Assembly: GCA_046328505.1 (NCBI GenBank)
Contig: JAXLWL010000004.1
Location: 9,559-73,558 of the forward strand
Reading direction: 5' to 3'
Origin: Anaerolineae bacterium
GTDB lineage: Bacteria > Chloroflexota > Anaerolineae > Epilineales > JAHCIE01
Length of the DNA: 64,000 bases
The notes beneath the pieces were generated by a model that made no database searches, was not told where the DNA came from, and was given only the letters and a program-made list of their open reading frames with translations. Both the position numbers and the translations under genes were made by a program. Of this stretch, positions 7,092 through 45,297 are shown in pieces (the stretch's first letter is position 1; every line of letters starts with the position of its first letter).

Positions 7092-7835
7092 TTACTCGAT
7101 ACCGTACCAGGATTTCAGGTACCCGCGCATCTCAGCGATTTCGGCGGTCTGGGCTGCGACGATGCTCTGAGCGAGGCTCTTGATCTCCTGATGCTCTGCC
7201 TTGCCTAGCGCGACGTTCGCCATGTCGATGGCGCCCTCGTGGTGCGGGATCATCATCTGCATGAACATGCGGTCGGCGTCGAAGTTGCCGCCCATCATCT
7301 GGGCCATGTCGTCGTCATCCATCATGCCGTTACCCATCATGCCGCCCATCATCCCACCCATCATGCCCCAGCCTGAAGTGGATGTCTGCGGAGCGTTGGG
7401 GTACCATTGCTTCCGCCAGTCCTGCATTTGAGCAATCTCACGCTGTTGGGCTGTGATGATGCGCTGGGCCAGGTCATCCATCTCGGGACGGGCAGAGTTC
7501 TCGACCATGTGCTGCGTCATGAGCACGCCCATCTGGTGATGCGCAATCATCTGGTCCAGAAACTGGAGGTCATACGGCTGGCTGGACGCTGTGCTGCCCG
7601 AACCTGTACCGAGCCTACCACCCATCATGCCGCCGGTACCACGGTTGCCCATCATCCCCCCGGCGCCCCGGTTCCCCATCATGCCACCGCTGCCCCAATT
7701 GCCCATCATGCCGCCGTTGCCCCAGTTACCCATGGGGCCTTGCGCCAGGGCAACCGTCGTCAGGCCGACGACCAGGGCGAGCACTGTGAGGCCAGCAGCG
7801 AGAATACCCAGTATTCGAAGCTTCATCTCAATCAT
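7092..7835 (-). CDS. DUF305-family secreted protein with Met/Gly-rich repeats (copper-resistance associated)
   Basis: N-terminal signal/TM. Four repeats of GGMMGN[WR]G. Two DUF305 half-domains (DLQFLDQMIAHHQMGVLM and DRMFMQMMIPHHEGAIDMA, each ending ...WY). Confidence 0.8.
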   Translation of the reverse strand: MIEMKLRILGILAAGLTVLALVVGLTTVALAQGPMGNWGNGGMMGNWGSGGMMGNRGAGGMMGNRGTGGMMGGRLGTGSGSTASSQPYDLQFLDQMIAHHQMGVLMTQHMVENSARPEMDDLAQRIITAQQREIAQMQDWRKQWYPNAPQTSTSGWGMMGGMMGGMMGNGMMDDDDMAQMMGGNFDADRMFMQMMIPHHEGAIDMANVALGKAEHQEIKSLAQSIVAAQTAEIAEMRGYLKSWYGIE

Positions 7836-7953
7836 CCTCTCTCGATCATTGACAGGCGCGTGCGCCGTGTGAGCTATCTACTCGCAGTGTAACATAGCAA
7901 CATCAAGAGAAGATGCGCAGAATGCTCAAGATTTGGTCAAGATTGTGGAACTG

Positions 7954-9075
7954 CTACGAGGCTATGGGTAGACTGAAAGAGAAGGTTGCACCCTGTCCGG
8001 GGCCGGCGCTATCTGCCCAAATGCGTCCACCCTGGGCCTCAATAAGCGCTTTGGCAATGGTCAGTCCGATACCGCTGCCGCCGAGCGCGCGCGAGCGGGC
8101 TTTGTCAACGCGGTAGAAACGCTCGAACAGATGGGGGAGATGCTCTGCCGGGATGCCGATACCGGTGTCGGTGATGTGAAACACGACCATGTTAGCACTT
8201 CGCTCTGCGCTGACGCCTACACTGCCGCCGGACGGCGTATAGCGCAAGGCATTGCCAAGCAAGTTGATCGAAACCTGGATGACACGGTCTGCGTCGGCGG
8301 TGACACGCGGTAGGTCTGTCGGAACCGCGCGGGTCACACGGATGCCTTTGTCGCTGAACTGGCTCTCCATCCGCGCCAGGGCATGGGTCACAAGCTCGGC
8401 TGGTGGATGCGGCTGGATATGCAGGGGAAGCTGGCGAGCTTCCGCACGGGATAACTCCTGCAGCTCCTGGACCAGTCGGCGCAGCCGCCCCACCTCGTTA
8501 TGCAGCATCGCCCAGGTCTCGGCGCTCGGCTCGACGACACCATCGAGTAGCCCTTCAGTGTAGCCTTCCAGTGTCGCGAGGGGAGTCCTTAGCTCGTGGG
8601 CGACATCCCCAATCAGAGCGACGCGGCGACGCTCGGTGGCTTCCAATTCCTCCGCCATGATGTTGAACTGCTCGGCCAGTGCCCCCAACTCGTCGTCCGC
8701 GCTCACAGGGACGCGCTCGGTATAATGCCCAGCCGCGATACGCCGGCTGGCCTGAACCAACCTTTGAAGAGGTGTGACGATTCGCGCGGAGACGACAAAG
8801 CTGATCGCTATGGCAGCCACCGTTGCCGCACTTGTACTGATGACGAGGGCCTGGAGCATGGCTGTTTGGAAGGCCTGGGCCGTCGTTTGTTGCGCGCCCG
8901 CCATCATGCCTCCCATCATGTTCATACCAGGCCCCATCATGCGTCCCATCACCCGATCAAAAAGCGTTGGTCCAATGGCTAGCGTCGCCACGACCAGCGT
9001 TACCACTCCCACGGCAATGACCAACAGGTGTGCGAACAACAGACGCGTGTGGAGGGACGAGCCCGTCGCAGCCAT
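7954..9075 (-). CDS. sensor histidine kinase (HAMP-HisKA-HATPase) with Met-rich extracytoplasmic segment
   Basis: H-box HELRTPLATLEGY. G-boxes DTGIGIP and GGSGIGLTIAKAL. Sensor region MGRMMGPGMNMMGGMMAG. Start chosen at the internal ATG (MAATGSS...) adjacent to the regulator stop. Confidence 0.8.
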   Translation of the reverse strand: MAATGSSLHTRLLFAHLLVIAVGVVTLVVATLAIGPTLFDRVMGRMMGPGMNMMGGMMAGAQQTTAQAFQTAMLQALVISTSAATVAAIAISFVVSARIVTPLQRLVQASRRIAAGHYTERVPVSADDELGALAEQFNIMAEELEATERRRVALIGDVAHELRTPLATLEGYTEGLLDGVVEPSAETWAMLHNEVGRLRRLVQELQELSRAEARQLPLHIQPHPPAELVTHALARMESQFSDKGIRVTRAVPTDLPRVTADADRVIQVSINLLGNALRYTPSGGSVGVSAERSANMVVFHITDTGIGIPAEHLPHLFERFYRVDKARSRALGGSGIGLTIAKALIEAQGGRIWADSAGPGQGATFSFSLPIAS

Positions 9076-9079
9076 GTCT

Positions 9080-9790
9080 CTATCCTCCCTGCGCCGCAAA
9101 TCGGTAACCGACACCGCGAATTGTCTGGATGTAGCGAGGTGCACCTGGGTCGTCGCCGAGCTTCTTGCGCAGATTAGCAACATGAACGTCAACCACGTGG
9201 TCATCGCCGAAGTAAGTGGCGCCCCACACCTGCTCCAGGAGCTGATTGCGGGTGAACGCTCGGCCCGGGTACGATGCCAGCGTTGTTAGAAGGTTGAACT
9301 CCAGCGGCGTGAGGGAAACGGGCTGACCCGCGAGGGTTACCTCGCGGCGTATCTGGTCGATCAACAGGTCGCCGAACCGCTGGGGCGACGGAACCTCGGG
9401 CAGGGTGTTCGAGCCGTGGCGCGGCCGTCGGAGCATGGCGCGAACGCGCGCGACCAGCTCGCGCGGCGAGAACGGCTTGGTAAGGTAATCGTCGGCGCCC
9501 ACCTCCAGCCCAATGACGCGGTCATATTCCTCGGACTTGGCTGTGAGCATGATGACGTATGCGTCGGAGAAGGTGCGAAGCCGACGGCAGACCTCCAGCC
9601 CATCTAGGACAGGTAACATCAGGTCGAGGATGACGACCAAAGGCGCGTGCTGACGCGCCAACTCGATGGCCGCCAGACCGTCATTGGCGGTCAGGACGGC
9701 GAAGCCCTCGTGTTCGAGATAGCTTCGCACCAGGTCGCGGAGGGGCGGCTCGTCGTCCACCACCAGGATTGTGGGCTGAGTATTCGTCAT
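9080..9790 (-). CDS. OmpR-family response regulator
   Basis: Receiver domain (ILVVDDEPPLR, D in LVVILDLMLP, ...TAKSEE) followed by a winged-helix C-terminus (RVHVANLRKKL...GVGYRF). Confidence 0.9.
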   Translation of the reverse strand: MTNTQPTILVVDDEPPLRDLVRSYLEHEGFAVLTANDGLAAIELARQHAPLVVILDLMLPVLDGLEVCRRLRTFSDAYVIMLTAKSEEYDRVIGLEVGADDYLTKPFSPRELVARVRAMLRRPRHGSNTLPEVPSPQRFGDLLIDQIRREVTLAGQPVSLTPLEFNLLTTLASYPGRAFTRNQLLEQVWGATYFGDDHVVDVHVANLRKKLGDDPGAPRYIQTIRGVGYRFAAQGG

Positions 9791-9830
9791 GGAATGTAGG
9801 GTCGCGGGAGATTTCGCCATTGACCAGTAT

Positions 9831-9859
9831 CTCCAATTGTTTTATACTCTGTTTTATCA
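9831..9859 (+). promoter_or_regulatory. sigma70-like promoter TTGACC-17-TATACT upstream of the blaI/copY-like gene, with a TGTTTTAT direct repeat overlapping the -10
   Basis: TTGACC at 9831-9836, TATACT at 9854-9859. TGTTTTAT occurs at 9849-9856 and again at 9861-9868. AT-rich island within GC-rich DNA. Confidence 0.4.
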
Positions 9860-9917
9860 TCTGTCAAATAGCCGCCTCAATTCCCGGATGAACTCAGTGA
9901 AAGAAAGTAGGACGAGC

Positions 9918-10343
9918 ATGACCAAGCCCATCCCTGTCCAGGCGTTTCGGCTTGATCAACACGGCTTAATGCGGTTCTTTGGGGAACTGGAAGCGCGTGT
10001 CATGGATGTGATGTGGGATCTGGAGGAGGCCCCGATCCAGGATGTGTGCGACCGGCTTGGCGAATGCAACTATCTCACCGTCACCACGGTCATGAACCGT
10101 CTTGTGTACAAAAATGTCCTGCAACGATGGCGGGTCGGTAAGGTGTACTTCTACGCCCCTGTCCAGACGCGGGAGGAGTTTCTCCAGAGCGTGTCGCATC
10201 AGGTCGTGCAGAGCCTTGTCAAGGATTTCGGGAAGCTGGCGATAAGCCAGTTCTCCGATGTGATTGATGACCTAACCTCCGAAGACCTGGCGGCGTTGGA
10301 ACAGGCCATCCACGAAGCCCGACAGAAAGCAATCCGTCGTTAG
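9918..10343 (+). CDS. BlaI/MecI/CopY-family transcriptional repressor
   Basis: Track ORF 9789..10343. Start refined to MTKPIPVQ.... Winged-helix N-terminus (LMRFFGELEARVMDVMWDLEE...TVTTVMNRLVYKNVLQR). Confidence 0.75.
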   Translation: MTKPIPVQAFRLDQHGLMRFFGELEARVMDVMWDLEEAPIQDVCDRLGECNYLTVTTVMNRLVYKNVLQRWRVGKVYFYAPVQTREEFLQSVSHQVVQSLVKDFGKLAISQFSDVIDDLTSEDLAALEQAIHEARQKAIRR

Positions 10344-10364
10344 GCAGACACGGAGTTAGCATTC

Positions 10365-11285
10365 ATGCGTGTTCAACAAGGCCGGTACCCTTTGTTAACA
10401 TTGGTCAGCCTAGCCACCTTCCTTACGGTGGGACTTAGCATAGCCCTGTTGGCCTACGGTTTTGCCGACTACCACTCAATTCTCGCCATTTGTCGGCTGG
10501 CGTGGAGCGAGGTTGTCGATCACGGCGTGTGGCCGATGGTGACTCCGATACTGGTGTTGCTGCTCATGGGTGGCAGCGCCGTAGTTGCCTTGGTCAGACA
10601 GCTTGTTGCGACGCGTCGTCTTCACCTCCGCCTCGCCCCACTGCTCGTGAACACACCGTCTACTGTGGTCGAGGCGACACAGCGACTTGGAATCGCGGGA
10701 CGAGTGGACGTCGTATATTCCGATGCTCCGTTAGTCTTCTGCTATGGTCTGTTGAAACCGCGCGTTTGCCTGGCAACAGGGCTGCTACGCTTGCTGGATG
10801 ACGAGGAGTTGACTGCCGTTTTGCTGCATGAACGCCACCATCTTCTCAGGCATGACCCGTTAGGTGTTCTCGCCAGTCGATGCCTGGCCGCGGCGCTCGG
10901 CGTGTTACCTGTCGCTCGCCAACTTGCCACGCGTTATCTGCTTGCGAAAGAGCTAGATGCCGATCGCCACGCCGTCGAGAGCTTGGGGGATCCGACGCCG
11001 CTTGCGAGCGCTATTCTCAAGTTGAACCGTGCCCGGCCCCAGTGGCGTCTCGGTCAGGCGGCCATTAGCCCATTGAATGTGACGCATGAACGCGTCGTGC
11101 AGCTGTTGACGGGAACTCCAGGGCCATTACCTCATCCAGGTCTCGGTGCAGCTCTATCGACTCTGGCTATCATTGCCGTGATCTTCACCGCGAGCTTCGC
11201 TCCTCTCCTATTGCTCCGCGAGAGCACGGAGCTTCATACCCATTGCGACCCGGCGGTGGGCGTGACAAGTATCTCTCCGACGTAG
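10365..11285 (+). CDS. BlaR1-type M56-family membrane metalloprotease (signal-transducing partner of the BlaI-like repressor; no extracellular sensor domain)
   Basis: Four TM helices. HExxH motif in LLHERHHLLRHD. Gene order is repressor then peptidase. Confidence 0.7.
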   Translation: MRVQQGRYPLLTLVSLATFLTVGLSIALLAYGFADYHSILAICRLAWSEVVDHGVWPMVTPILVLLLMGGSAVVALVRQLVATRRLHLRLAPLLVNTPSTVVEATQRLGIAGRVDVVYSDAPLVFCYGLLKPRVCLATGLLRLLDDEELTAVLLHERHHLLRHDPLGVLASRCLAAALGVLPVARQLATRYLLAKELDADRHAVESLGDPTPLASAILKLNRARPQWRLGQAAISPLNVTHERVVQLLTGTPGPLPHPGLGAALSTLAIIAVIFTASFAPLLLLRESTELHTHCDPAVGVTSISPT

Positions 11286-11854
11286 CTCCAGTAGTTAGTC
11301 GTTCTCCAACTGCCTCAGGTCCGCAAAGAATAGACTCTGGCATAAAGGTGGCCCAACTGGAGATAGACTTCTTGACGGGGATGATTCCCCACCACCGCAG
11401 TGCCATCATGATGGCGGAAATGGCCGCGATGAAGGCGACGAAGCCCGAGCTGCGTCAACTGGCGCAGAAAGAAATCAGTGAGCAGCGCGGCGAGATCGAG
11501 AAGATGACGGCCTACCTGCGCGACTGGTACGGCATAGAGGCGCCAACGGCGCAAATGATGACACCCGAGATGATGATGAAGATGGACATGCCGATGTTGC
11601 ACGGCATGATGTTCGATGACGCGGCCGCTATGGCCCGTCGTGAGGCGAAAACAGGCACGGACTTCGACATCGAGTTTATGAGCAGCATGACGCAGCACCA
11701 CAGCCAGGCGATCATGATGGCCTCAGCTGTCCTGATGAACGGTTACCACGCCGACCTCTACAAGATGGCGAACAACATCGTCATGTCACAGGGCGAGGAG
11801 ATCCAGCAGATGGATGAGTGGCTTAATGCCTGGTATGGTGTGGCAGATCCGTGA
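11243..11854 (+). CDS. DUF305-family protein, Met-rich
   Basis: Two DUF305 half-domains (DFLTGMIPHHRSAIMMAEMA and DIEFMSSMTQHHSQAIMMASAV, each ending ...WYG). Start uncertain; a GTG near 11349 is possible. No obvious signal peptide. Confidence 0.65.
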   Translation: MRPGGGRDKYLSDVAPVVSRSPTASGPQRIDSGIKVAQLEIDFLTGMIPHHRSAIMMAEMAAMKATKPELRQLAQKEISEQRGEIEKMTAYLRDWYGIEAPTAQMMTPEMMMKMDMPMLHGMMFDDAAAMARREAKTGTDFDIEFMSSMTQHHSQAIMMASAVLMNGYHADLYKMANNIVMSQGEEIQQMDEWLNAWYGVADP

Positions 11855-11939
11855 CTCAGCACATCATCAGAATTGCCTTAGTTTTGCTTCAGCCCGGTGG
11901 GTTACTATAGAGATGTTGTCTCACGTGTTGCGCTGAAGT

Positions 11940-12175
11940 GAGCCAGGACCGCGACTGCCGAGGGACTGAACGATACCGCAGTGGCGCGGCAATTGGACAT
12001 CAGCGTCGATACGACGTACCACTGTGGAAGACGCCGGTTGGGCTTGCAGGCTGTGTCGATGGATGGGTTAAGCGTCGACGAGTGGCTGGAAGATGCGCCG
12101 CGACCGCGCAAACCGCCGCAGATCACGGCGGAGCAGGTGTGCCAGTTGGCGGCCTTGGCGGGCGAGCACCCCTAA
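11940..12175 (+). mobile_element. IS630-family transposase N-terminal HTH fragment (remnant)
   Basis: ...GLNDTAVARQLDISVDTTYHCGRRRLGLQAVSMDGLSVDEWLEDAPRPRKPPQITAEQVCQLAALAGEHP* matches the IS630/Tc1 HTH N-terminus (RPRK...EQ...LA.EHP). No start codon and no catalytic domain. Confidence 0.5.
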
Positions 12176-12220
12176 AGGTGGGAAGCAACCGACCTAATGT
12201 ACTAGAGGGATTGCTGAAGA

Positions 12221-12973
12221 ATGAATGCTGCAAGGCAAGTCGAAAAAGACGGCACAGTTGCCACTTCAAGCGTCTCAACTTCTGAGACTAGCTACGGACA
12301 GACGGACATCGTTGTTAGGACGCTTTCTCAGCACTGGCTGTTGATATTGAACATCATTATGGGTGTTTTTGTTGCCCTGCCGTGGCTCGCGCCCCTCCTT
12401 ATGGCAAATGGTTATGAGATGCCGGCGAAGGCCATCTATCTAGCCTACAGCCTCACCTGCCATCAACTTCCGGAGCGCTCATACTTCTTGTTTGGCCCAA
12501 AGGTTATGTACTCCATGACCGAGATCGCCTCCGTCTGGCCGTCTCAGGACATGCTGATTCGCCGCCAGTTCATTGGCACGCCTGCTATGGGCTACAAGGT
12601 GGCGTGGTCGGACCGCATGGTGTCAATGTATACCGCCATGTTTGTGGGAGGTCTTGTCTTCGCTCTCGTGCGCCACCGTGTACCCCGGTTGAGCTGGCGA
12701 TCATTCCTCCTGATAGGCGTCATGCCCATGTTCCTGGACGGCTTCTCGCACATGATCAATGATCTGTCAGGCTGGGGCTTTCGCGACAACAATGCCTGGC
12801 TCGCGGCTTTGACGGGGCATGTTTTCCCTGCCACATTCTACGGAGGCGACGCGATAGGCTCCCTAAACTGGTGGTTGAGGTTGGTCACAGGACTATTATT
12901 CGGCTTCATGGTGATCTGGCTGGCTTACCCGGTGATCGGTCGCGAGTTGGAGAGAACTTCAATACACAATTGA
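12221..12973 (+). CDS. DUF2085-family integral membrane protein
   Basis: Conserved LTCHQLPERS motif with several TM helices. Confidence 0.6.
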   Translation: MNAARQVEKDGTVATSSVSTSETSYGQTDIVVRTLSQHWLLILNIIMGVFVALPWLAPLLMANGYEMPAKAIYLAYSLTCHQLPERSYFLFGPKVMYSMTEIASVWPSQDMLIRRQFIGTPAMGYKVAWSDRMVSMYTAMFVGGLVFALVRHRVPRLSWRSFLLIGVMPMFLDGFSHMINDLSGWGFRDNNAWLAALTGHVFPATFYGGDAIGSLNWWLRLVTGLLFGFMVIWLAYPVIGRELERTSIHN

Positions 12974-13156
12974 GGCTCCTTCGGGTGCTAAACTCTGCCT
13001 GGTTCTGCTCTTCAGCAGATCCTCAGGTTTGCCTCAGGTTTGCGTCAGCCCATGCTGCTATGATGGAGCTGCTATTGGAACTTATCGCGCCTGCCAGTGA
13101 GCAGAGATCGCGACCATTCGAGAGAAAGGCTAATGATCCAACATGACAATGCGAGG

Positions 13157-13642
13157 ATGCGTATGTGGCTGCGAGTGACCCGTATCCTACTGGGGATCAT
13201 CGGGGTCGCCGCCCTGTTCGTGGTCGCGGCATGTTCCTCTCAGTCTGCTGCGCCGACCACATCCGGTAGTGCTTCCACGACGCAAGGAGGCGCATCGGCG
13301 CCAAAAGCGAGCGGCGCGAGCCTTGTGTTCGACGAGACGTCGGTGGACTTTGGCAAGGTGCCCTTCGACAAGATGGTGGAGAAGAGCTTCGTCTACCGCA
13401 ACGTCGGCACGAAACCTATTAGCATCGTCGAGAAACCGAGAGTCGACACGGTCGCTGGCTGCTGACCGCCTCAGCCCGTCGTCAGTTCGACGACATTGCA
13501 GCCCGGTGAGACCGCTACACTTCGCGTTGCCCTTGTCATGCATGAAGGCATGGGCGGCGAACATGACTTCCGTGTCACGGTCAAGACGAACGATCCGGTC
13601 CAGCCCGAGACCGTTCTGACGGTCAAAGGCGTCTTCGGCCCG
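13157..13642 (+). CDS. DUF1573-like (Ig-fold) lipoprotein with an in-frame TGA at 13463-13465 (pseudogene or candidate selenocysteine site)
   Basis: Lipobox VVAACSS. The frame reads ...FDETSVDFGKVPFDKMVEKSFVYRNVGTKPISIVEKPRVDTVAGC-TGA-PPQPVVSSTTLQPGETATLRVALVMHEGMGGEHDFRVTVKTNDPVQPETVLTVKGVFGP*. The TGA falls where DUF1573 proteins carry the CGCT motif. Both halves are listed separately in the ORF track. Confidence 0.5.
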
Positions 13643-13722
13643 TAAGGCCCTCTCCTCGCGCTTCACCAGGAGCGCGGGGAGGGCCACATTTCATTCGTCA
13701 GAGTCAAGCGCTCGTCCGCACC

Positions 13723-14178
13723 TTGAAGGTTCACATGCTCCCTCGATTCATATTGCCGCTAGTCCTCCTGGCGATTCTCCTGTCAGCCACGCTCAGTGCC
13801 TGCCGTGTCGCTCCTTTACCCGAAGGTGTCACATTCACACAGGTCATGGAAGGCAAGGACCTGTACGAGGCCAATTGTGCAGCCTGTCATGGTCCAGCTG
13901 GTGAAGGGCAAGATTGGCGCACTCCCGTGCCCGCCGGTCTTCTGCCAGCCCCGCCCCACAATAACGAGGGCCACACCTGGCATCATCCGGACCAGCAGCT
14001 TCTCGAGATCGTTCGGGACGGCGGCAAGACGCAAGGCAGCACAATGCCTGCGTTCAAGGATCGCCTGACCGACGCGCAGATGAAGGCGATTCTAGCCTAC
14101 ATCAAGACACTCTGGGGGCCTGAGGAACGAGCACGACAGGCAGAGCTGACACGTCTCAACATGAGCGACCACAAGTAG
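13723..14178 (+). CDS. class I c-type cytochrome (single CxxCH), secreted lipoprotein
   Basis: Signal peptide/lipobox (LSAC). Heme-binding motif NCAACHG. Met ligand region GSTMPAF. Confidence 0.75.
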   Translation: MKVHMLPRFILPLVLLAILLSATLSACRVAPLPEGVTFTQVMEGKDLYEANCAACHGPAGEGQDWRTPVPAGLLPAPPHNNEGHTWHHPDQQLLEIVRDGGKTQGSTMPAFKDRLTDAQMKAILAYIKTLWGPEERARQAELTRLNMSDHK

Positions 14179-14283
14179 CGAGTAATGGTTACCCAGTTCT
14201 TCGTACTCCTGGTTCCGCAGGCGTTAGACCCGCTGGTGCATCTACCAAAGATGTCGAAGCCACTATTTCCCTTAGTACTCTGT

Positions 14284-16371
14284 TCACTTATGGCGAAGCA
14301 AACGGGCCGAATTGCCAAGGATGCCAAGATCGGGTAGAGATTGCGCGGCAGCCGCCAGAATAGGTGGCAGAATACCAATTGCAGCCAGCGATAGCCCCAC
14401 GAGATTGTAGCCAGCGGTGAACCCGATGTTCATCTTCACAACCCGCATTGTCCGTTTGGCAATCTTGAACAGTTCGGGCACCAGCGTCCAATCTTCGCGC
14501 ATCAGAGCAACATGCGCTGCCTCGATCGCCACATCCGTCCCGGCTGCTCCCATAGCGATTCCTACGTCAGCCTGGGCCAAGGCGGGCGCATCATTCACGC
14601 CATCTCCTACCATCACGACGACGTGTCCCTGAGCCTGATACTTCTTCACCACAGCGATCTTCTGTTCTGGCAGCAGGTTGGCGCGGTACGCTACATGGAG
14701 CGCGTCGGCAAGGGCTGCGGCCGTTCGTTCGTTGTCCCCGGTCAGGAGTTCAATGTGCTCAATCCCAAGAGCACGAACGGATGCCAGCGCCTCGGGCACT
14801 TCCGGGCGCAGGGTGTCAGCAGCCGCGAGGATGCCTGCCGGTTCGCCATTTTGGGCCACGAACAAGAGAGTCTTGCCTTGTGCCTGTAGTTCATCGGCGA
14901 TAGAGGGTACTTCAAGCATTGGAAGCATTCGGCGGCTACCGATGGTCACGAGGTTGCCGTTTACCCGTGCCTGCACTCCCATGCCAGGAACAGATTCAAA
15001 GTCCTCCGGCTCGAGCGAAGACAGTCCGCGCTCTCGCGCAGCCGCGCGTGCAGCTTCAGCGAGTGGATGCTCTGAGTAGCGCTCGGCAGATGCAGCAAGC
15101 GTCAAGAGGTCATTCTCGGAGAGGCCGTTGAGAGGGACGACGTTGGTGATCTGCGGACGGCCAAGCGTCAGTGTGCCTGTCTTGTCTACGAGAAGCACAT
15201 CAGCACGGGCAAGCAACTCCAGGTACTTCCCACCTTTGATAAGGAGCCCTCGTTTGGCTCCCGCCCCAATGGAAGCCAGCATAGCAATCGGCGTTGCGAG
15301 AGCAAAGGAGCAGGAGCAAGCCACAACCAACACCGCGGTGGTCGCGAGAGGGTCGCGGCGAACCAGAAAGGTGAGTGTCGCGATGCTTGCGACCACCGGT
15401 AGGTAGTAGGCAGAGAACTTGTCACCGATGCGTTGGATGTCGGCCTTATGCGCTTCGGCTTCCTCTACCAGCTTAATCACGCGACCAAAAGTCGTATCAG
15501 GGCCGATATGGGTCGCACGAATGCGCACACTCCCTAGCCGGGCAATCGTCGCCGCAAACACGCTTGCCCCTGGCCCGACCTCCACGGGCATCGCTTCGCC
15601 GGTGATAGTTGCCTGGTCCACTGTGGCCTGACCGCTGACGACCTCGCCATCCACCGGAATCTTGTCGCCGGGCCGGATCACAACGATCTCACCCACGCGT
15701 ACTTCGCTGGCCGGGACTTCATACTCCTCGCCGTCCCGTTCAACCCGCGCTGTCTGTGGGGCCAGTGCGGTCAGGTCTTTCACAGCACGTCGCGCGCGCT
15801 CCGTGGTGAAGTGCTCCGCGTAGTCACCCACACGCATGAAGAAGACGACGACGGCCGCTGTTGCCCATTGGCCAACGATTAAGGCAGCGACCGCGCCCAC
15901 ACTCATCAACGTGTGGGAAGTGATCTCTCTCTTCAAGGCGGAGCGGATGACGTTGCGAAAGATGGGGTAGCCAAACACGAGGACAATGCCCACACCGACA
16001 AACCAGGGGACACGTGCGGTGAGCGCTTCGAAAAGGCCTAGCCACTCGCCTACAACCACGACAAACAGCACGACGCCAAAGACGATCCCAAACAAAGTCA
16101 GGACCTGTCGGGTCAAGCCAGCCAGGGGAGCGGTAGATCGCTGCTCGTTGTCCGACTGAGGGACCGCGTATCCTGCACCCTCGACCGCCTTGCAGACGGA
16201 CGCCAAGTCCACTTGTGCTGGATCGAGCTGGATCACAGCTTTCTCTGCTGTCAGTGAGACATCTACCGCATGGACACCGGGGAGGGCCGATATGGCGCGC
16301 TGGACGCTCTTGGTGCATTCCACGCAGTCCATGCCGCGAATGGGAACCTCCAAGGTGTTGAGGCTGGCCAT
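14284..16371 (-). CDS. heavy-metal translocating P1B-type ATPase (N-terminal HMA domain; TM6 motif reads CSC instead of CPC)
   Basis: HMA domain GMDCVEC. DKTGTLT phosphorylation motif, GDGVNDAP, TGE motif. TM6 VVACSCSFALATP (15310-15318 encodes CSC). Start at MASLNT (16371), directly after the arsR stop. Confidence 0.85.
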   Translation of the reverse strand: MASLNTLEVPIRGMDCVECTKSVQRAISALPGVHAVDVSLTAEKAVIQLDPAQVDLASVCKAVEGAGYAVPQSDNEQRSTAPLAGLTRQVLTLFGIVFGVVLFVVVVGEWLGLFEALTARVPWFVGVGIVLVFGYPIFRNVIRSALKREITSHTLMSVGAVAALIVGQWATAAVVVFFMRVGDYAEHFTTERARRAVKDLTALAPQTARVERDGEEYEVPASEVRVGEIVVIRPGDKIPVDGEVVSGQATVDQATITGEAMPVEVGPGASVFAATIARLGSVRIRATHIGPDTTFGRVIKLVEEAEAHKADIQRIGDKFSAYYLPVVASIATLTFLVRRDPLATTAVLVVACSCSFALATPIAMLASIGAGAKRGLLIKGGKYLELLARADVLLVDKTGTLTLGRPQITNVVPLNGLSENDLLTLAASAERYSEHPLAEAARAAARERGLSSLEPEDFESVPGMGVQARVNGNLVTIGSRRMLPMLEVPSIADELQAQGKTLLFVAQNGEPAGILAAADTLRPEVPEALASVRALGIEHIELLTGDNERTAAALADALHVAYRANLLPEQKIAVVKKYQAQGHVVVMVGDGVNDAPALAQADVGIAMGAAGTDVAIEAAHVALMREDWTLVPELFKIAKRTMRVVKMNIGFTAGYNLVGLSLAAIGILPPILAAAAQSLPDLGILGNSARLLRHK

Positions 16372-16373
16372 GC

Positions 16374-16718
16374 TCAATCTTCCCTTTCGACGTTGTAGCG
16401 CGTGCATTGGTACACACCTTGCGCTACATCAGCCAACAGTTCTTCGGCCAGGCAGAGCAGTTGGCCGACGCGCTCGTCACTGAGACGATAGTACACATGG
16501 CGCCCCCGCTTCTCGCGCGTGACGAGGCCACAGTCATTCAAGCAAGAGAGATGATTGGAGACATTGGGCTGCGTCAGCCCAGTGACCGCAATGACTTCCG
16601 TGACACTACGCGGCCCATCTCGAAGGGCCTCAAGGACGGCGAGACGGGAGGAATCTGAAAAGCCTCGAAAGAGCTTGGCCTTCAACTGGGTCGCTTGGGC
16701 ATGTGCGGCAATTAGCAT
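16374..16718 (-). CDS. ArsR/SmtB-family metalloregulatory repressor
   Basis: HTH LAVLEALRDGPRSVTEVIAVTGLTQPNVSNHLSCLNDCGLVTREKRGRHVYYRL with candidate metal-site Cys/His. Start at MLIAAHAQ. Immediately upstream of, and co-oriented with, the ATPase. Confidence 0.8.
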   Translation of the reverse strand: MLIAAHAQATQLKAKLFRGFSDSSRLAVLEALRDGPRSVTEVIAVTGLTQPNVSNHLSCLNDCGLVTREKRGRHVYYRLSDERVGQLLCLAEELLADVAQGVYQCTRYNVERED

Positions 16719-16741
16719 AGGCTCGTCCTGGGTATATTTGT

Positions 16742-16788
16742 ATATCACTATGTGCTGATATATTATTGTGATTGCTGCGATTTGTCAA
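16742..16788 (-). promoter_or_regulatory. arsR promoter (TTGACA-17-TAATAT) with an overlapping ATATCA-N8-TGATAT palindrome, a candidate ArsR operator, in the divergent arsR/CDF intergenic region
   Basis: Minus-strand -35 at 16783-16788 and -10 at 16760-16765. The perfect 6-bp-arm inverted repeat at 16742-16761 overlaps the -10 and the predicted transcription start. Confidence 0.5.
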
Positions 16789-16851
16789 GACATGGTAAGC
16801 AAGCACCAGTTGCCAAAGACCGGACCAAGAAGCGGGGAGGAGTAGGGCGAG

Positions 16852-17754
16852 ATGGCGCATACTCACGAGCACGGGCCAGCGAATTACGGCCGAGCGTTTG
16901 CCATTGGCGTGGCTTTGAATCTCGGCTTTGTCATCATAGAGGGCGGCTACGGCTATGTGTCTAACTCGCTCGCCCTCGTCGCGGATGCCGGGCATAACCT
17001 AAGCGATGTTCTTGCCCTTCTATTGGCCTGGGGAGCGAGTGTTCTCGTTTTGCGCCTTCCGACCGTCAAGCATACGTACGGGATGCGGAGCACCTCTATT
17101 CTTGCTGCTCTTGTCAACGCAATGTTACTTCTCATTGCCATTTCGGCAATTGTGTGGGAAGCTCTCCAACGGCTGATGAACCCCGCGCCAGTCGAGGCTG
17201 AGACAGTTATCTGGGTCGCTGTCGTGGGCATTGTCGTCAACACCGTGACCGCGCTGCTGTTCATGTCCGGCCGCCAGCACGACCTTAACATCCGAGGCGC
17301 CTTCATGCACATGGCGGCTGATGCGGCCGTTTCGGCGGGCGTCGTTCTAGCCGGCTTCGCGATTATAGTAACTGGTTGGGAATGGCTTGATCCGGTGGTG
17401 AGTCTGCTCATCGCAGCAGTGATCTTCGTAGGAACCTGGGGGCTGCTCAAAGAGAGCATCAATATGGCGCTTGACGCGGTACCGGAAGGTATTGACCTTA
17501 GTGAGGTCAAGAGTTACCTCGAAGGGCTACCGGGTGTGATCGAAGTTCACGATCTCCATATCTGGCCCATGAGTACAACTGAAACTGCCTTGACAACTCA
17601 TCTTGTTATACCGGACCACAGGGCCGATGATGCGCTATTGAACGAAGTGCTAGAAACACTCCACGACAGGTTTGGCATCGAGCACACCACGATACAGATT
17701 GAAGCAGGCAATACGGCGCATCCGTGTAAACAAGCCCCGGCTCATACTGTTTGA
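16852..17754 (+). CDS. czcD: cation diffusion facilitator (CDF) family divalent metal exporter
   Basis: Six TM helices, conserved HNLSDVLALLLAW, and a C-terminal cytoplasmic domain. Divergent from arsR. Confidence 0.8.
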   Translation: MAHTHEHGPANYGRAFAIGVALNLGFVIIEGGYGYVSNSLALVADAGHNLSDVLALLLAWGASVLVLRLPTVKHTYGMRSTSILAALVNAMLLLIAISAIVWEALQRLMNPAPVEAETVIWVAVVGIVVNTVTALLFMSGRQHDLNIRGAFMHMAADAAVSAGVVLAGFAIIVTGWEWLDPVVSLLIAAVIFVGTWGLLKESINMALDAVPEGIDLSEVKSYLEGLPGVIEVHDLHIWPMSTTETALTTHLVIPDHRADDALLNEVLETLHDRFGIEHTTIQIEAGNTAHPCKQAPAHTV

Positions 17755-17882
17755 GAGACTTCGTGGAGCACAAGAAAGGAACCCGGCAGCGCAGGTACCG
17801 AGTTCCCGTAGTTCTCGTATGCCTTCTCCTCTTTCTCAGCCTCCACACCGCTTAATGTACCGAGTGCAGGTGCATTCTTACC

Positions 17883-18557
17883 TCACCCCGGATACCACTT
17901 GTTGCGCCATTCGCGCATTTGGCTGATTTCCCGTTCCTGCGCGGCGATGATGTCGGCCGCTAGCTGCCTGATCTCGGGCTTCGTCGCCCGTTGCTGAGCG
18001 ATCTTTGCCGCCTCAATAGCGCTCTCGTGATGCGGGATCATCGTATCGATGAAGGCCTTGTCGAAGGGGGACGCTGTTTGGAGCTTCTGGACGTCCTCCG
18101 CCATGTTGCCCATGTCGCTCTTCATTTCGGGTAGCATCGGCATGCTCGCCATGGCCGGCGTCTGGTCCGAACCGTACCATGCCTTACGCCAGGATTTCAT
18201 CTGCTGAACTTCCTTGTCCTGGCTACTGACGATAGCGTCGGCGAGTTGACGGATCTCGGAGTGTTCGGCGCGAGATTGAGCCACCTTAGCCATGGCGACG
18301 GCGCCCTCATGGTGCGGCACCATCATGTCGATGAACTGCTGGTCGAACGGCGCCTTTGGATCGGTTGTTGAATGCCCTGCCAACGCGTGGTTCATCCCCA
18401 TCCCTGTAGAGGATTGAGGTGGGCTTTGCATAGGCTGGCTTTGTTGCTGACCCTGTGTCTGTGGGCTACAGGCGATGACGCTGAAGCCTAGCAGGAGGCC
18501 AGCGACCAGGGCAGGAAAGTGGCGTCGAAGGTTCTGCATTACGGAGAGTCCTTTCAA
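17883..18557 (-). CDS. DUF305-family lipoprotein, Met-rich
   Basis: Lipobox VIACSPQ. DUF305 half-domains DQQFIDMMVPHHEGAVAMA and DKAFIDTMIPHHESAIEAA, each ending ...WYG. Confidence 0.8.
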   Translation of the reverse strand: MKGLSVMQNLRRHFPALVAGLLLGFSVIACSPQTQGQQQSQPMQSPPQSSTGMGMNHALAGHSTTDPKAPFDQQFIDMMVPHHEGAVAMAKVAQSRAEHSEIRQLADAIVSSQDKEVQQMKSWRKAWYGSDQTPAMASMPMLPEMKSDMGNMAEDVQKLQTASPFDKAFIDTMIPHHESAIEAAKIAQQRATKPEIRQLAADIIAAQEREISQMREWRNKWYPG

Positions 18558-18718
18558 GGGTCACGGTAGAGTTGAGGATCTGGTTTGTGCGACTTCGGTT
18601 ACTGCGCATGAACACAATCGGGCAACAAGGCGCGGGTAAGAGCCTCTTGTTTTACATCCTATAAAAGATCGCTGTCCGAATTCTAGCTTAACTCGCCGGT
18701 GTAGGCAAGAATGCGCTT

Positions 18719-21280
18719 TCAGGAAGTGCTTGTGGGAGCTCGCTCAACCGATGGAGAAGCACTCGTCGAAGGCTCGCCGCCAATAGGTTGCGCCAGATCA
18801 CTCTCGACGCGCTTGAGAGACACGGCATTGACGGCGACGATGATGGACGACAGCGACATCAGCAGCGCCGACCACTCCGGCCGCAGCATGATACCATAGG
18901 CGGGGTAAAGAATACCCGCGGCGACGGGAATCGCCAGGATATTGTAAACCGAGGCCCACACAAGGTTCTGCTTCATCTTGCGCACCGTCGCCTTCGACAG
19001 CTTGATGGCGCGGATGACGTCCACCGGATCGCTCTTCATGAGCACGACCTTCGCCGTCTCGATGGCGACGTCTGTACCCGCGCCGATGGCGATGCCGATG
19101 TCGGCCTGGGCCAACGCCGGGGCATCGTTGACACCATCGCCCACCATCGCGACGCGTTTGCCCTCCGACTGGAGCTGCTTGACGTAGCCCGCCTTGTCCG
19201 CGGGTAGCACCTCGGCGAACACCCGCTCGATGCCCAGCTCGTGTGCTACCGCCTGGGCCGTGCGCGTGTTGTCGCCGGTCATCATCACGACCTCGATGCC
19301 CAGGTCTTTCAGGCCCGCGACGGCCACCCCCGCGCTTGGCTTGACGGTATCCGCCACCGCGACGATGCCGGCCGGCTGCCCATCCACCGCCACGAGCATC
19401 GGCGTCTTGCCCGCCTCTGCCAGGCTCGCCATCCGCCCCTCCAACTCTTGCACGTCCAGACTGTTCTCGGCCATCAGCCGCGCGTTTCCGACTAGCACCG
19501 TGCGCCCGCCGACAGTGGCGCGGATGCCGCGGCCCGTGATTGCCTCGAAGCCACTGGCGTCGTCAAGCTGGAGCCCTCGTCCCTGTGCCCCCGCCACAAT
19601 CGCCTCGGCCAACGGGTGCTCCGAGCCGCGCTCGGCTGAGGCGACCAGGCGCAGTAGCCCGTTCTCGTCCAACGATCCTACCGCGACAATATTCGTTAGC
19701 GATGGCTTGCCCTCGGTCAGCGTCCCTGTCTTGTCGAGAACGATGGCGTTGATGTCGGACACCCCTTCGAGCGTGGCGGCGTCCTTGATGAGTATGTTGT
19801 GCCGCGCGCCAATGCCGGTGCCGACGGCGACGGCGGTTGGCGTCGCCAACCCCAGGGCATCGGGGCAGGCGATGACGACGGCCGAGATGGCGAAGGTAAG
19901 GGCCGTGATGAGGGCGGCGTTCAGCCCGAAGTACCACGCCAGGAAAGTAACGATGCCCGCGCCGACGGCGAGAATCACGAGGTACTGCGCCGCCCTATCG
20001 GCCAGGCGCTGGCCGGGCGCCTTGGAGTTCTGCGCCTGCTCGACCAGCTTCACGATCTGGGCCAGCGCCGTCTCCGCGCCAACGGCCGTCGCGCGGAAGC
20101 GCACGCTGCCCGTGCGGTTGATAGAGCCAGCTACCACTTTGTCGCCGGCCCGCTTGGTCACCGGCAGGCTCTCGCCTGTGACCAGGGCCTCGTCAATGGC
20201 GGTCTCGCCCTCGGTCACCTCGCCGTCCACCGGCACCTTGTCGCCAGGCCGCAGGACGACGATGTCGCCGACCTGCACCTCGCTGCTGGGAACGGTCATC
20301 TCCTGGCCGTCGCGGATGACGGTCGCCTGGGGTGGCACAAGATCGAACAAGGCGCGCAGGGCATCGTTCGTCCCCCGCCGCGAGCGCATCTCCATCCAGT
20401 GGCCGAACAGGACGAACGTCACGAGCATGGCCGCCGCTTCGTAGAACGTCTCCCCACCCAGGAAGGTGATCAGAACGCTGAAGACGTAAGCGGCCAGGAC
20501 GCCGGTGGCGATGAGGACGCTCATGTTGAGCATCCCGCGCTTGAGGGAATAGTACGCACCGGCGATGAACAGCCAGCCACAATAGAAGACCACCGGCGTG
20601 GACAGGATGAGCATGATAATGTTGGTGTCCAGGCCGAAGGTCGGCAGGCGCAAGCCGAGAAAGTTCATGCCCAGGGGGGAGTAGAGGACAGTCGGGATGG
20701 TGAGCAGGAGGGCGATGAAGAACTTGTTGCGCATGTCGCGCTCCATCGCCGCCGCCATGCCCGGATCGGACATGTCGTGCCCCATGTGCTCGTGCGCGCT
20801 GCCCTGCGCTGCGTGCTCCATGCCACCATGTGCCTCGTGAGACGTCGGCGGGGTAGTGGGCGCGACATGGTGGGCGCGGGCATGGTCGTGGGCGCGGGTC
20901 GCGGGCATCTCGTACTGCATGCGGTCATGCTTGGTGCCCATCGTGATGGGCTGGGTCTGCACACCGTGGGCGAGGTGCTGCATCTGACGCTGCGGGGAGG
21001 GCGCGACAGTCTCGTGAGGGTGGCCATCCGCCGCCGTGCAATCGCAACCGGTGGACGCGATAATCTGCTCGATCTGCTCGCGGCTAATCATCCCCTCGTG
21101 GTAGCCTACGTGAACGACGTTGTTCGCCCAGTCCAGGTGGACGCTTGTGATGTGCGGATTGACGCGAAGGGCCTTTTCGACCGCGGTGGCGCAGTCGAGG
21201 CAATACAGACCATCCAGCTTGAACGTCGCGTGCTGAGCAGTATGCACCTGGTCCTGGTGAGCTCTCTTGTGATCCATCAT
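18719..21280 (-). CDS. heavy-metal translocating P1B-type ATPase with N-terminal HMA domain and His-rich stretch (TM6 motif CPD)
   Basis: HMA domain LYCLDCATAVEKAL. His-rich HDHARAHH...HEAHGGMEHAAQGSAHEHMGHD. DKTGTLT, GDGVNDAP. TM6 VVIACPDALGLATP. Start at the ATG at 21280, which has GAGAGG upstream. Confidence 0.85.
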   Translation of the reverse strand: MMDHKRAHQDQVHTAQHATFKLDGLYCLDCATAVEKALRVNPHITSVHLDWANNVVHVGYHEGMISREQIEQIIASTGCDCTAADGHPHETVAPSPQRQMQHLAHGVQTQPITMGTKHDRMQYEMPATRAHDHARAHHVAPTTPPTSHEAHGGMEHAAQGSAHEHMGHDMSDPGMAAAMERDMRNKFFIALLLTIPTVLYSPLGMNFLGLRLPTFGLDTNIIMLILSTPVVFYCGWLFIAGAYYSLKRGMLNMSVLIATGVLAAYVFSVLITFLGGETFYEAAAMLVTFVLFGHWMEMRSRRGTNDALRALFDLVPPQATVIRDGQEMTVPSSEVQVGDIVVLRPGDKVPVDGEVTEGETAIDEALVTGESLPVTKRAGDKVVAGSINRTGSVRFRATAVGAETALAQIVKLVEQAQNSKAPGQRLADRAAQYLVILAVGAGIVTFLAWYFGLNAALITALTFAISAVVIACPDALGLATPTAVAVGTGIGARHNILIKDAATLEGVSDINAIVLDKTGTLTEGKPSLTNIVAVGSLDENGLLRLVASAERGSEHPLAEAIVAGAQGRGLQLDDASGFEAITGRGIRATVGGRTVLVGNARLMAENSLDVQELEGRMASLAEAGKTPMLVAVDGQPAGIVAVADTVKPSAGVAVAGLKDLGIEVVMMTGDNTRTAQAVAHELGIERVFAEVLPADKAGYVKQLQSEGKRVAMVGDGVNDAPALAQADIGIAIGAGTDVAIETAKVVLMKSDPVDVIRAIKLSKATVRKMKQNLVWASVYNILAIPVAAGILYPAYGIMLRPEWSALLMSLSSIIVAVNAVSLKRVESDLAQPIGGEPSTSASPSVERAPTSTS

Positions 21281-22040
21281 GACGCCTCTCGTTGCATCAA
21301 ACACACAATACATTCACCTTTCCAAAGTATACGCGATTTGCTTTATGCACGGTAAAAGTTACTGCCGCGCATCGTGATCAACAGCCGTAAATACGTCGGA
21401 TGGCTAGGTTCCGCTTGAGGGCGAACGCATGTTGCCTGACGCATTGCTTTGAACATAGGTGACGATGCAGCAAATCAACAAGCAGGACGATCGGATGGAG
21501 TGACATGCGAGTCCAGTAGAGGTGCGAATCAATACGCTACGTGGAGGGAGCGCCATGTCCGATAGCCTCGCCCTCTCTGCTACTGTCCTTGATCGTGTTC
21601 ATACAATCAACTCTCCCGAAGACCTACACCGCCAGAAGGTTTTCACCTCAATCGTCGTCGGCATACTGTTGGAGCAGACCATCAGCATGCCTCAAGATAG
21701 TAGAGCGGTGAACCGGCGGTCTGCAGGCTCAGACGTTAGCTGATCTCGATGACTGTAACCGTGCTCTTCCCCTCACCACGAAATCCGCCACACTTCAACG
21801 AAATTCCCGTCGACGCGTTACCATTTGCCCCCCTTGTGCGTCTACTTATTGTAACTATATACTGTTTTCGCTACTCCGATCATCCTGCCGACGTTTCGTC
21901 GCGCGCCTCGTCCTCCGGCGATCAGCGCATTCTTACCCTCATCATCGCCTCGCTGATTTGCGCCCTGCTGTTCTCGGCTGACACGCCCAGGCTCTTCCGC
22001 CGTCTCGACCCCCGTCGGGACTGCCCTCCAGGAGGTCACC

Positions 22041-34854: not shown

Positions 34855-35024
34855 GCCAATCCTGCCGTCCCACAACCTTCTATTCCTGTCCCCGCCCAAG
34901 CGGCTATGCTACTCGTGCATAACCGCTTGGTTGACTGTGTGACGTACCAGCCTATAATCAGCGGGTAGTGAGGGATGACCCGCTGACGGGTCTGTCTGAG
35001 CGTTGAGTGGCGGGGGGAAGGCGT

Positions 35025-38000: not shown

Positions 38001-38063
38001 AGGTATAGTCCCTTCTATGGAGGCAACGATCAGGGGTTTCGGGTCGTATTTTCCAATCTCTGA
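35025..38063 (+). CDS. STAND NTPase: N-terminal ~145-aa helical domain, G/N-rich strand motif, NACHT domain, C-terminal FGE-sulfatase (SUMF1-like) domain
   Basis: Walker A LVIVGDPGAGKTTFLKHL, Walker B LVMFDGLDEV. FGE-sulfatase signature RYPVTVAQFEAYV...LPSEAEWEKAARG...SPYGIEEMAGNVWEWT...VVRGGAF...GFRVV. Shared motif VQGNGNVVAAGNISDSVINSGRVEA at 35448-35531. Confidence 0.85.
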   Translation: MDLEGWKQATRERLHGMAEILRRKTPGAVYGGLSAAAILPIISALNQGDLMAVLAFGSLLGSVGAGLITNQIQAWKDKSDTELAEELTQKAETDAKWREALDKLMQELETPRLAQETLAPGGRAWLAEALNQELTRLGSSVRVQGNGNVVAAGNISDSVINSGRVEAREGSVVIIAQQVSRDIVASLKPEGLSASELQAITEPYLKYLITRYRYLDFKGMGMADRVPLRLPIEDMYIPLRARVEIPRWERSGWQDFEALSDREAQLLGSLETPEESRYTTERFGGSPWLLDLLGRHDGLVIVGDPGAGKTTFLKHLTLSLALGHGERVGLANRLPVLVPLSAYARALELEDVALQEFLGTYYRNQGTDLSIDALLAAALSDGRALVMFDGLDEVQEITRRGLVLERVTAFYALHRQRGNKFILTSRIVGYKDVRLTAEGLEECTLVDFDERDIREFINKWTCAVEQAIHGPSAFSLRQAEIEGNELLDAIARNPGVRQLAANPLLLTILALMKRQGVALPERRVELYDKYVETLLRHWNLARGLDRRAARDLDVVETLRVIAPLALWMQATSPGRGLVKQADLQRQLIAIYSERGEADPERAARQFQHDVRDHAGLLLERGPREYGFIHLTFQEYLAAVAIAQHGQVDVAPVVRTLAAHMDDASWREAVLLTIGYLGLIQQRDEAAGDVLQQLVASPEASPAAVVLAGEAAVDAGPGGVSVSGRQAVAGALLAVMRDDEHADALTRAAAGDALAKLGDPRFRANAWFLPDEPLLGFVKIPSGGLTMVEGSTENVVDVPTFFIGRYPVTVAQFEAYVDASGQTPVNKQSLRDPVNRPVRYISWSEAMNYCRWLAGTLRVWADTPQPLADWLRGTGERPPGRITLPSEAEWEKAARGTAEHTYPWGEQPNPNRANYRDTKIGDTSSVGCFPSGASPYGIEEMAGNVWEWTRSILKNYPYDPKDGREDEAIEGNRVVRGGAFIDNATSLRCSFRGRYSPFYGGNDQGFRVVFSNL

Positions 38064-45186: not shown

Positions 45187-45297
45187 CTCTCTTCCCTAAC
45201 AGCTGCATGTTTCTTGACAGAGCGTAACCGTCTCCCACCCTCAGCGTTCTAATTAGTACACCTTGTGGACAGCAATGCGGCTGGAGGGAGAGAGGGA

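Follow-up and report, generated by a model that had tools for sequence, protein, structure and literature searches.

The question raised by this locus is what becomes of an in-frame TGA codon, at positions 13463–13465, that divides a DUF1573-type gene in a 64,000-nucleotide stretch of DNA from an Anaerolineae bacterium (contig JAXLWL010000004.1, positions 9,559 to 73,558). We will refer to this whole stretch as the window, and coordinates given without another identifier are counted from its first letter. An earlier reading of the letters themselves (the sequence-only reading) had described both halves of the gene as lying in one frame, with a perfect 6 bp hairpin 12 nt past the TGA, and had left the choice between a pseudogene and a selenocysteine (Sec) site. 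The coordinates bear out both descriptions, and the comparative data speak for selenocysteine and against a pseudogene. We consider it highly probable that UGA 13463–13465 is recoded as selenocysteine, because the TGA is conserved among homologues, full-length relatives have Cys in its place, the frame downstream appears to be under selection and the hairpin covaries; on these grounds we infer that Sec is actually inserted.

The frame in question opens at 13097 on the + strand, contains ATG codons at 13157 and 13163, and reads ...VDTVAGC up to the TGA. Beyond it the frame stays open for 59 further codons (PPQPVVSSTT...VFGP; in full PPQPVVSSTTLQPGETATLRVALVMHEGMGGEHDFRVTVKTNDPVQPETVLTVKGVFGP) and terminates at a TAA at 13643–13645; VALVMHEGMGGEHDFR is an example of a peptide from this C-terminal, post-TGA part of the read-through product. 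The start codon is likelier to be 13163 than 13157, because GAGG lies 6 nt upstream of it and because it agrees with the GenBank call MFN8473852.1. This record ('hypothetical protein U0822_16805', 100 amino acids) covers 13163–13465 only and ends at the TGA. When a placeholder residue is put at the TGA, the read-through protein matches Pfam DUF1573 (PF07610) across both halves, with residues 57–159 on model positions 2–97 of 98 and a score of 47.9 bits against a gathering threshold of 26.1. The sequence-only reading had also placed the TGA in the CGCT motif of DUF1573 proteins, and this agrees with hhalign, which sets the GC[C/U]PP of the family described below on the canonical S-C-G-C-T stretch. 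The window protein is probably secreted and lipid-anchored, to judge from the N-terminus ...ALFVVAAC-SSQS, which conforms (as a pattern match only) to the lipobox pattern [LVI][ASTVI][GAS]C. A lipobox-like pattern is present in 46 of 131 truncated relatives, the remainder having a hydrophobic (plain membrane) anchor.

Homologues of this gene carry the same TGA. The first homology search returned only gene calls ending at the identical ...GC (96% and 60% identity), and the DNA behind them reads TGC TGA CCN CCT CAG CCC GTCGTCAGTTCGACGAC, then an open frame to the same ...VFGP stop. More distant loci (L008, L009, L010, L011, L013–L016, L017 and L021) likewise have the TGA followed by 59 in-frame codons; among them L008 and L009 are metagenome contigs at 42–43% identity, L010 is at 65% identity, and L017 and L021 come from metagenome-assembled genomes (MAGs) of Anaerolineae and Chloroflexi respectively. 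In all, TGA stands at the equivalent codon in 11 of 11 distinct homologous loci, from independent assemblies and at identities from about 96% to about 40%, in the context TGY-TGA-CCN-CC. A nonsense mutation and a sequencing error, both of which the sequence-only reading had named as alternatives, are refuted by this recurrence. The pattern extends well beyond these loci. When the N-terminal half was compared by phmmer with 1.84 billion cluster representatives there were 239 matches, and among the best 150 of these were 116 short proteins, 112 of which end in ...GC aligned to the residue preceding the TGA. The endings of the GC-terminated short relatives include EGC (78), QGC (13) and AGC (8). 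Over all searches we gathered at least 131 distinct truncated proteins. Genome contigs scanned with the N-terminal half as query yielded nothing but distant DUF1573 proteins (Pirellulales, Zavarzinia).

Full-length relatives of about 160–180 amino acids were retrieved with a profile of six read-through proteins (A1). At the position of GC-TGA-PP in the window protein, 90 of the 96 have GCCPP in a MAFFT alignment, while one JGI protein has GCWPP at the site, the TGA having been translated as Trp. The forms with GCU (U for Sec) and those with GCC are thus aligned at the same site and, on this comparison, would be a classic Sec/Cys pair. The orthologues, whose codon at this site the sequence-only reading had proposed as a check, show no other lesions. 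The family signature is (E/Q)GC[C/U]PPxP ... MH(E/A)GM(G/D)GxH. As delimited by these searches the family appears to be large, mainly from Chloroflexota with some members in Actinomycetota, and predicted GCU forms alternate in it with GCC forms. There are also tandem two-domain relatives (P0036, P0038, P0042, P0140, P0142 and P0145), whose second domain ends at GC followed by a stop. Their first domain lacks PPxP and is read through at the site without Sec; there, GC (EC in P0142) is followed by D or E in five of the six, and P0038 has no Cys. In these relatives Sec is presumably confined to the second domain.

The codons past the TGA also behave as coding sequence. Over the 59 post-TGA codons the window differs from L003 by 14 synonymous and 9 non-synonymous changes and from L010 by 24 and 15 respectively, and synonymous changes equal or outnumber non-synonymous ones against each of the closer relatives (L003, L010 and L011). 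Amino-acid identity downstream is 85% with L003 and 75% with L010, compared with 81% and 73% in 48 upstream codons, and the post-TGA frame always extends to a conserved ...FG(P/S/N) stop. These patterns argue strongly that the frame downstream of the TGA is translated and under purifying selection. Elsewhere in the window TGA is an ordinary stop, being used by 14 of 27 Pfam-supported genes and by 7 of these in a TGA-C context, so that read-through here must be site-specific. A crude scan of the window for further open reading frames (ORFs) split by TGA gave only unconvincing candidates, typical of GC-rich DNA.

The hairpin downstream of the TGA is a candidate for a bacterial selenocysteine insertion sequence (SECIS; bSECIS below). 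Every Sec form has it at the same position, and in relatives the stem is longer, at 7–8 bp, and is closed by a GUU or GUG triloop. We aligned the 45 nt from the TGA, gap-free, for 11 Sec loci and one Cys form (alignment A4, 12 sequences). The helix of up to 8 bp (columns 15–22 with 26–33) is paired in 87.5% of cells, and five of its eight pairs have changes on both sides: C-G to U-A and C-G to A-U at synonymous third positions, changes of the closing and basal pairs, and U-A to C-G, which in L021 arises through Val-to-Ala and Thr-to-Val replacements. The covariation score was reached by none of 500 column shuffles, and when the partners are slid by 1–3 columns pairing falls to 18–62%. In the loop, G23 and U24 are invariant in all 12 sequences; the statement of the sequence-only reading that the loop lacks the canonical G-U was mistaken, as the window loop AGUUC contains it. 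The published bSECIS model has a loop of 3–9 nt, a stem of 4–16 bp, a G in the first two loop positions, a distance from UGA to loop of 16–37 nt and a minimum free energy of −7.5 kcal/mol or lower (PMC13188914). With a loop of 5 nt (3 in relatives), a stem of 6–8 bp, a G at loop position 2 and 18 nt from UGA to loop, the geometry of our element lies within these limits.

Several observations weigh against selenocysteine and have to be set beside this. The folding energy is borderline against −7.5 kcal/mol, at −7.4 kcal/mol for the bare 17-mer and −8.9 with 3–4 flanking nt, and in relatives it ranges from −5.7 (L010) to −10.9. A 68-nt fold has a z of 0.01, and a comparable perfect hairpin follows about 2.1% of all TGA triplets in the window by chance. 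The hairpin alone is therefore weak evidence, and it gains significance because it is conserved and covaries across homologues. A scan of 13300–13700 against Rfam gave matches at chance level only and no SECIS family. Four of the six core pairs are dictated by GUN-GUN...ACN-ACN (Val-Val...Thr-Thr), so that the pairing is partly tied to the protein sequence, and the covariation is drawn from 12 sequences of few clades. Furthermore, the Cys form L012 (485–529 of ERZ27247703 k141_10180, with TGC) keeps a perfect 8 bp hairpin at the SECIS position, with a compensatory pair of its own. L012 is a close relative of the Sec forms L008 and L013, and the distant Cys form L018 has no hairpin, these two being the Cys-form loci whose DNA was compared. 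A plausible explanation is that the L012 hairpin is a fossil SECIS left by a recent switch from Sec to Cys; there is also a hint here of a second role for the hairpin.

The machinery for selenocysteine is the other point on this side. None of selA, selB, selC and selD was found in the 64 kb window or in about 150 kb of related loci; a tRNA scan found no tRNA in the window and no tRNA-Sec in five related loci, and Pfam scans of 40 window ORFs found no SelA, SelB or SelD. The lineage is not foreign to selenocysteine: in Anaerolineales, single-cell genomes carry formate dehydrogenases of the Sec type as well as SelB, which is also encoded by Anaerolinea thermophila (PMC4959059); tRNA-Sec variants have been described from Chloroflexi and Actinobacteria (PMC5389517), and three selenoprotein families had been counted in Chloroflexi by 2006 (PMC1794560). 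The source genome would be expected to encode the machinery outside the window.

Among other explanations, the one that survives best is recoding without selenocysteine, which we regard as improbable. The UGA would be read by a near-cognate tRNA (Trp or Cys), helped by a weak UGA-C context and the hairpin, or Cys would be inserted in a SelB-dependent manner, as described in some bacteria for a tRNA(Sec)-like tRNA(Cys). It would fit with the C that follows the UGA in every case, with the Cys forms, which show Cys to be functional at the site, and with the unusual tRNA(Sec)-like species reported for Chloroflexi and Actinobacteria (PMC5389517). However, the seven ordinary window genes that also end in TGA-C indicate that context alone is not the cause of read-through, and the retention of TGA in more than 100 divergent lineages, one mutation away from TGC or TGT, points to selection for something beyond Cys; the hairpin, moreover, has the position, size and loop G-U of SelB-binding elements. 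True termination at the TGA seems to us very unlikely; the product would then be the N-terminal fragment of 100 amino acids, and what lies downstream would stay untranslated or be translated on its own. Gene callers and GenBank do annotate the stop there, and small downstream ORFs are sometimes called, but termination would cut a single beta-sandwich domain midway, the PPxP immediately following the TGA is preserved in the same frame, the Cys forms run through as single proteins, and no start codon is conserved past the TGA (the window and L008 have TTG, and L009 ATC). A pseudogene arising from a recent nonsense mutation in the window copy has less still to recommend it: a lone in-frame stop between halves in one frame is how a fresh nonsense mutation looks, but the comparative data refute this reading, since the same TGA occurs in homologues down to about 40% identity that have no other lesions and whose downstream part is under purifying selection. 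Scarcely credible are an error of sequencing or assembly and a genetic code in which UGA is a sense codon throughout the genome. Although the source is a MAG and one JGI relative was translated with Trp at the site, the same TGA occurs in independent ENA, JGI, NCBI and Logan assemblies and ends about half (14 of 27) of the well-supported window genes; even taken jointly, pseudogene, error and alternative code have very little probability.

We propose the following scheme. UGA 13463–13465 would be decoded as Sec in a secreted single-domain DUF1573-type protein, directed by the in-frame SECIS hairpin 12 nt downstream, which would presumably be bound by SelB-GTP-Sec-tRNA(Sec). In the product, (E/Q)GCUPPxP would hold the vicinal Cys-Sec dyad, with MHxGMxGxH as a second conserved loop. 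Dyad and loop may together make up a site for soft metals outside the cytoplasm, Cu(I) being the likeliest metal. Or else the two may be a selenenylsulfide redox centre that acts on copper or copper proteins within copper homeostasis, supplied by DsbD, NapH-like or cytochrome c partners. The elements of the gene and its nearest neighbours are collected in Table 1.

Table 1. Elements of the read-through gene and neighbouring genes in the window, in order of position
Feature	Position	Strand	Basis and remarks
DUF305/CopM paralogues	7092–7835; 11243–11854; 17883–18557	−; +; −	
CopY/BlaI-like repressor, M56/M48 sensor-protease and DUF305/CopM-family protein, upstream	9789–11854	+	Pfam, NCBIfam
DUF2085 membrane protein, upstream neighbour	12221–12973	+	Pfam; DUF2085 also near Cys form L018
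Full read-through gene	13163–13645	+	160 codons from ATG 13163 (alternative ATG 13157); translation, Pfam DUF1573 spanning the TGA
Domain content of the read-through product			Signal peptide/lipobox, Ser/Thr/Ala-rich linker, single DUF1573 (PapD/ASH-like Ig) domain
Signal peptide with lipobox-like V-A-A-C	13163–13234	+	Cys codon TGT 13232–13234; read from sequence
Codons of the predicted vicinal Cys-Sec dyad, TGC TGA	13460–13465	+	TGA 13463–13465 is the candidate selenocysteine codon; TGY TGA CCN CC kept in 11 distinct loci
Spacer, UGA to hairpin	13466–13477	+	Encodes conserved PPxP; alignments A1 and A4
Candidate bacterial SECIS core	13478–13494	+	6 bp stem GUCGUC/GACGAC, loop AGUUC; DNA GTCGTC-AGTTC-GACGAC; starts 12 nt after TGA
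Met/His motif M-H-E-G-M-G-G-E-H (family consensus MHxGMxGxH)	13538–13564	+	Candidate soft-metal ligand loop; (nearly) invariant in alignments A1 and A3
Secreted mono-haem cytochrome c, downstream neighbour	13723–14178	+	Pfam Cytochrom_C; same order (family gene, then cytochrome c) in L010
Heavy-metal P1B-type ATPase with N-terminal HMA/CopZ-like domain	14284–16407	−	NCBIfam TIGR01525, TIGR01511

A structural view of the protein comes from an AlphaFold2 model of a Cys form (57 aligned relatives), which is a confident beta-sandwich with a pLDDT (predicted local distance difference test) of 89.4 and a pTM (predicted template modelling score) of 0.72. In the model GCC follows the strand 94–99, and the MHEGMGGxH loop lies between strands 118–125 and 133–143; by strand order the GCC and Met/His loops would lie at the same end of the sandwich. 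The nearest solved folds, by PDB sequence search and by Foldseek against PDB, are HYDIN, ASH and PapD-like domains and the Porphyromonas DUF1573 protein 2qsv.

The neighbourhood of the gene is rich in metal-resistance functions. It lies within an island (7092–21313) that comprises a two-component system, a CopY/BlaI-like repressor with an M56 sensor, two P1B ATPases, a CDF transporter and the three DUF305/CopM paralogues. A simple promoter and terminator scan of 12900–13800 detected nothing; directly past the TAA of the family gene and before the cytochrome c gene there is an imperfect GC-rich inverted repeat (13647–13688, GGCCCTCTCC...GGGGAGGGCC), which lacks a T tail and was missed by the terminator scan. 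Copper genes recur beside the related loci. L010 is accompanied by a CopY-like repressor, YtkA, a multicopper oxidase, cytochrome c, a CopI-like cupredoxin, DsbD and YHS; L021 by cupredoxin, HMA and DsbD genes; L009 by a two-component system, a YtkA-like protein and a NapH-like Fer4_5 membrane protein; and the Cys form L018 by PCYCGC, cupredoxin, DUF2085 and CtaG. Immediately upstream of L017 is a CsoR/RicR-type copper repressor, with ATPase remnants downstream. A 2.2 kb unannotated stretch of the L017 locus was considered as another TGA gene and rejected, as it is a fragmented P-type ATPase: at L017 10573–12368 the ATPase is split into N-terminal and C-terminal ORFs with the middle missing, no gene being called in the record, which would make it a pseudogene or else an artefact of assembly.

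Proteins with PCYCGC (PF13798) are found repeatedly beside the family domain (L008 10898–11314, L013 11863–12282, L018 7479–7931) and are fused to it in P0134 and P0193. A selenoprotein family (OS_HP4, motif UxxC) is on record for PF13798 as well. The copies that we saw have Cys, and the PCYCGC protein of L008 was for this reason rejected as a second selenoprotein.

From the recurrent copper-gene neighbourhood we infer an extracytoplasmic copper-handling role, which we hold somewhat more readily than its denial, in which the Cys-Sec dyad and the Met/His loop would either bind Cu(I) or form a redox centre of the selenenylsulfide type. Against it stand the following points: the evidence for a metal or redox function consists of motifs and neighbourhood; PDB sequence search and Foldseek against PDB found no homologue with a known metal site; and L008 and L013 lack canonical copper genes and have instead a NapH-like Fer4_5 membrane protein and a PCYCGC protein. 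A more specific proposal, which we put forward tentatively and think rather less probable than the general role, is that of a 'seleno-cuproprotein': an Ig-like scaffold presenting the dyad and the Met/His loop would use selenium to bind Cu(I). In the other version of this proposal, dyad and loop would be a selenenylsulfide reductase, its substrates being Cu(II) or thiols damaged by copper, and DsbD/CcdA, NapH-like or cytochrome c partners would supply it. If this were true, it would be the first case of a selenocysteine given over to copper homeostasis, as ligand or as redox centre, and it would be widespread in Chloroflexota. More generally, the copper-handling role would link DUF1573 and its frequent partner PCYCGC to copper homeostasis, with Cys-Sec or Cys-Cys together with MHxGMxGxH as the candidate active site; a literature search found no paper linking DUF1573 to copper function.

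Two further parts of the window are recorded here for themselves. A block resembling a defence or mobile island (45265–58171) contains a thymidylate-synthase-like gene (48983–50020, − strand) and a 5-hydroxymethyldeoxyuridine (5-hmdU) DNA kinase gene (49974–51716, − strand; 'putative DNA base hypermodification protein' in GenBank), with an M78 peptidase, an SNF2/NOV_C helicase, a DUF1156 protein and STAND NTPases near them, all on an 837 kb Anaerolineae contig. Thymidine hypermodification genes are usually found in phages. At 35007–41439 there are two tandem proteins of about 1,000–1,060 amino acids, each with a NACHT NTPase and a C-terminal FGE-sulfatase (formylglycine-generating-enzyme-like) domain.

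How, then, does the proposed system compare with those already known? The window element resembles the bSECIS of the E. coli fdhF type in that a stem-loop lies directly downstream of the UGA inside the ORF and has G-U in its apical loop. Its 17-nt core hairpin begins 12 nt after the UGA, where the minimal E. coli SECIS element begins at 11 nt, but it lacks the bulged U and the extended lower helix of the latter. It is also shorter and weaker than most described bSECIS elements, and binding by SelB is a prediction only. If it does direct Sec insertion, so small an element, largely encoded by Val-Val-x-Ser-Thr-Thr codons, would illustrate joint constraint on RNA and protein and could serve in recombinant Sec insertion.

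With respect to copper, the natural comparison is with CusF, CopC/PcoC, PCuAC and CopM/DUF305, which are extracytoplasmic copper chaperones or binding proteins with Met/His sites. CusF, CopC/PcoC, PCuAC and CopM (model NF049983) are, like the window protein, small secreted or lipid-anchored beta-sandwich proteins of copper resistance loci, and their Met/His-rich loops are comparable to MHxGMxGxH. No match of sequence or fold to the window protein was found for CusF, CopC, PCuAC or CopM in Pfam, NCBIfam, the PDB sequence search or Foldseek against PDB, the likeness being one of presumed function and of context, and we know of none of these proteins (CopC/PcoC, CusF, PCuAC, CopM) that uses Cys-Cys or Cys-Sec.

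The dyad itself has parallels elsewhere. In mammalian thioredoxin reductase a C-terminal GCUG pair forms a selenenylsulfide redox centre. Among bacteria, the metal-related proteins SaoC, MbdU, HgcA and the MerB-like SaoL have CU motifs, in which the pair is thought to bind soft metals or metalloids (PMC13188914 Table 1). Thioredoxin reductase and the bacterial CU proteins share with the window family an adjacent Cys-Sec preceded by Gly (G-C-U). However, their folds are unrelated to that of the window family, whose dyad is internal, within a loop of an Ig-like domain that is secreted, and has PPxP after it, and we detected no homology of the window family to thioredoxin reductase, SaoC, MbdU, HgcA or SaoL.

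A DUF1573 selenoprotein is already known. Two reviews list one (PMC9312934, PMC13188914), OS_HP2 with the motif UGC, which comes from the study of deltaproteobacterial symbionts of Olavius algarvensis (PMC1976440). OS_HP2 (NCBIfam NF041425) and the window family are alike in having the domain PF07610, in placing Sec within one and the same short Cys-rich segment that follows the third main strand, and in being predicted bacterial selenoproteins with the SECIS inside the coding region. They differ in where the Sec falls. In OS_HP2 it replaces the first Cys of C-G-C, giving UGC; when the window family is aligned by hhalign with the canonical ...PSCGCT..., its Cys stands on the first Cys and its Sec or second Cys on the Gly (G-C-U), and in this register its Sec lies one residue after that of OS_HP2. 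Scores against NF041425 fall below the cut-off of 100 bits, with 37.2 bits for the window protein and, for the best of 57 Cys forms, an E of 2.6e-10 (about 38–39 bits where the score was shown). Unlike OS_HP2, the window family has the invariant PPxP and MHxGMxGxH, belongs to other phyla (Chloroflexota and Actinomycetota) and occurs in a copper-gene context.

In the 2026 catalogue of 119 families and subfamilies, the same domain with a different Sec position counts as a distinct subfamily, and DUF1573 is represented by the UGC form alone, with no G-C-U form (PMC13188914). The Sec subfamily proposed here, its motif and its context are therefore uncatalogued, while the recoding mechanism is ordinary and the domain family is known. 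The family would have escaped annotation, since each of its members is called as a truncated hypothetical protein; no fewer than 131 distinct proteins in the databases would be mis-annotated in this way, as hypotheticals of about 100 amino acids, and a family model with a Sec flag would correct them. Set beside OS_HP2, the window family would extend the prokaryotic selenoproteome by a large subfamily not listed so far and centred on Chloroflexota, where few selenoproteins are known.

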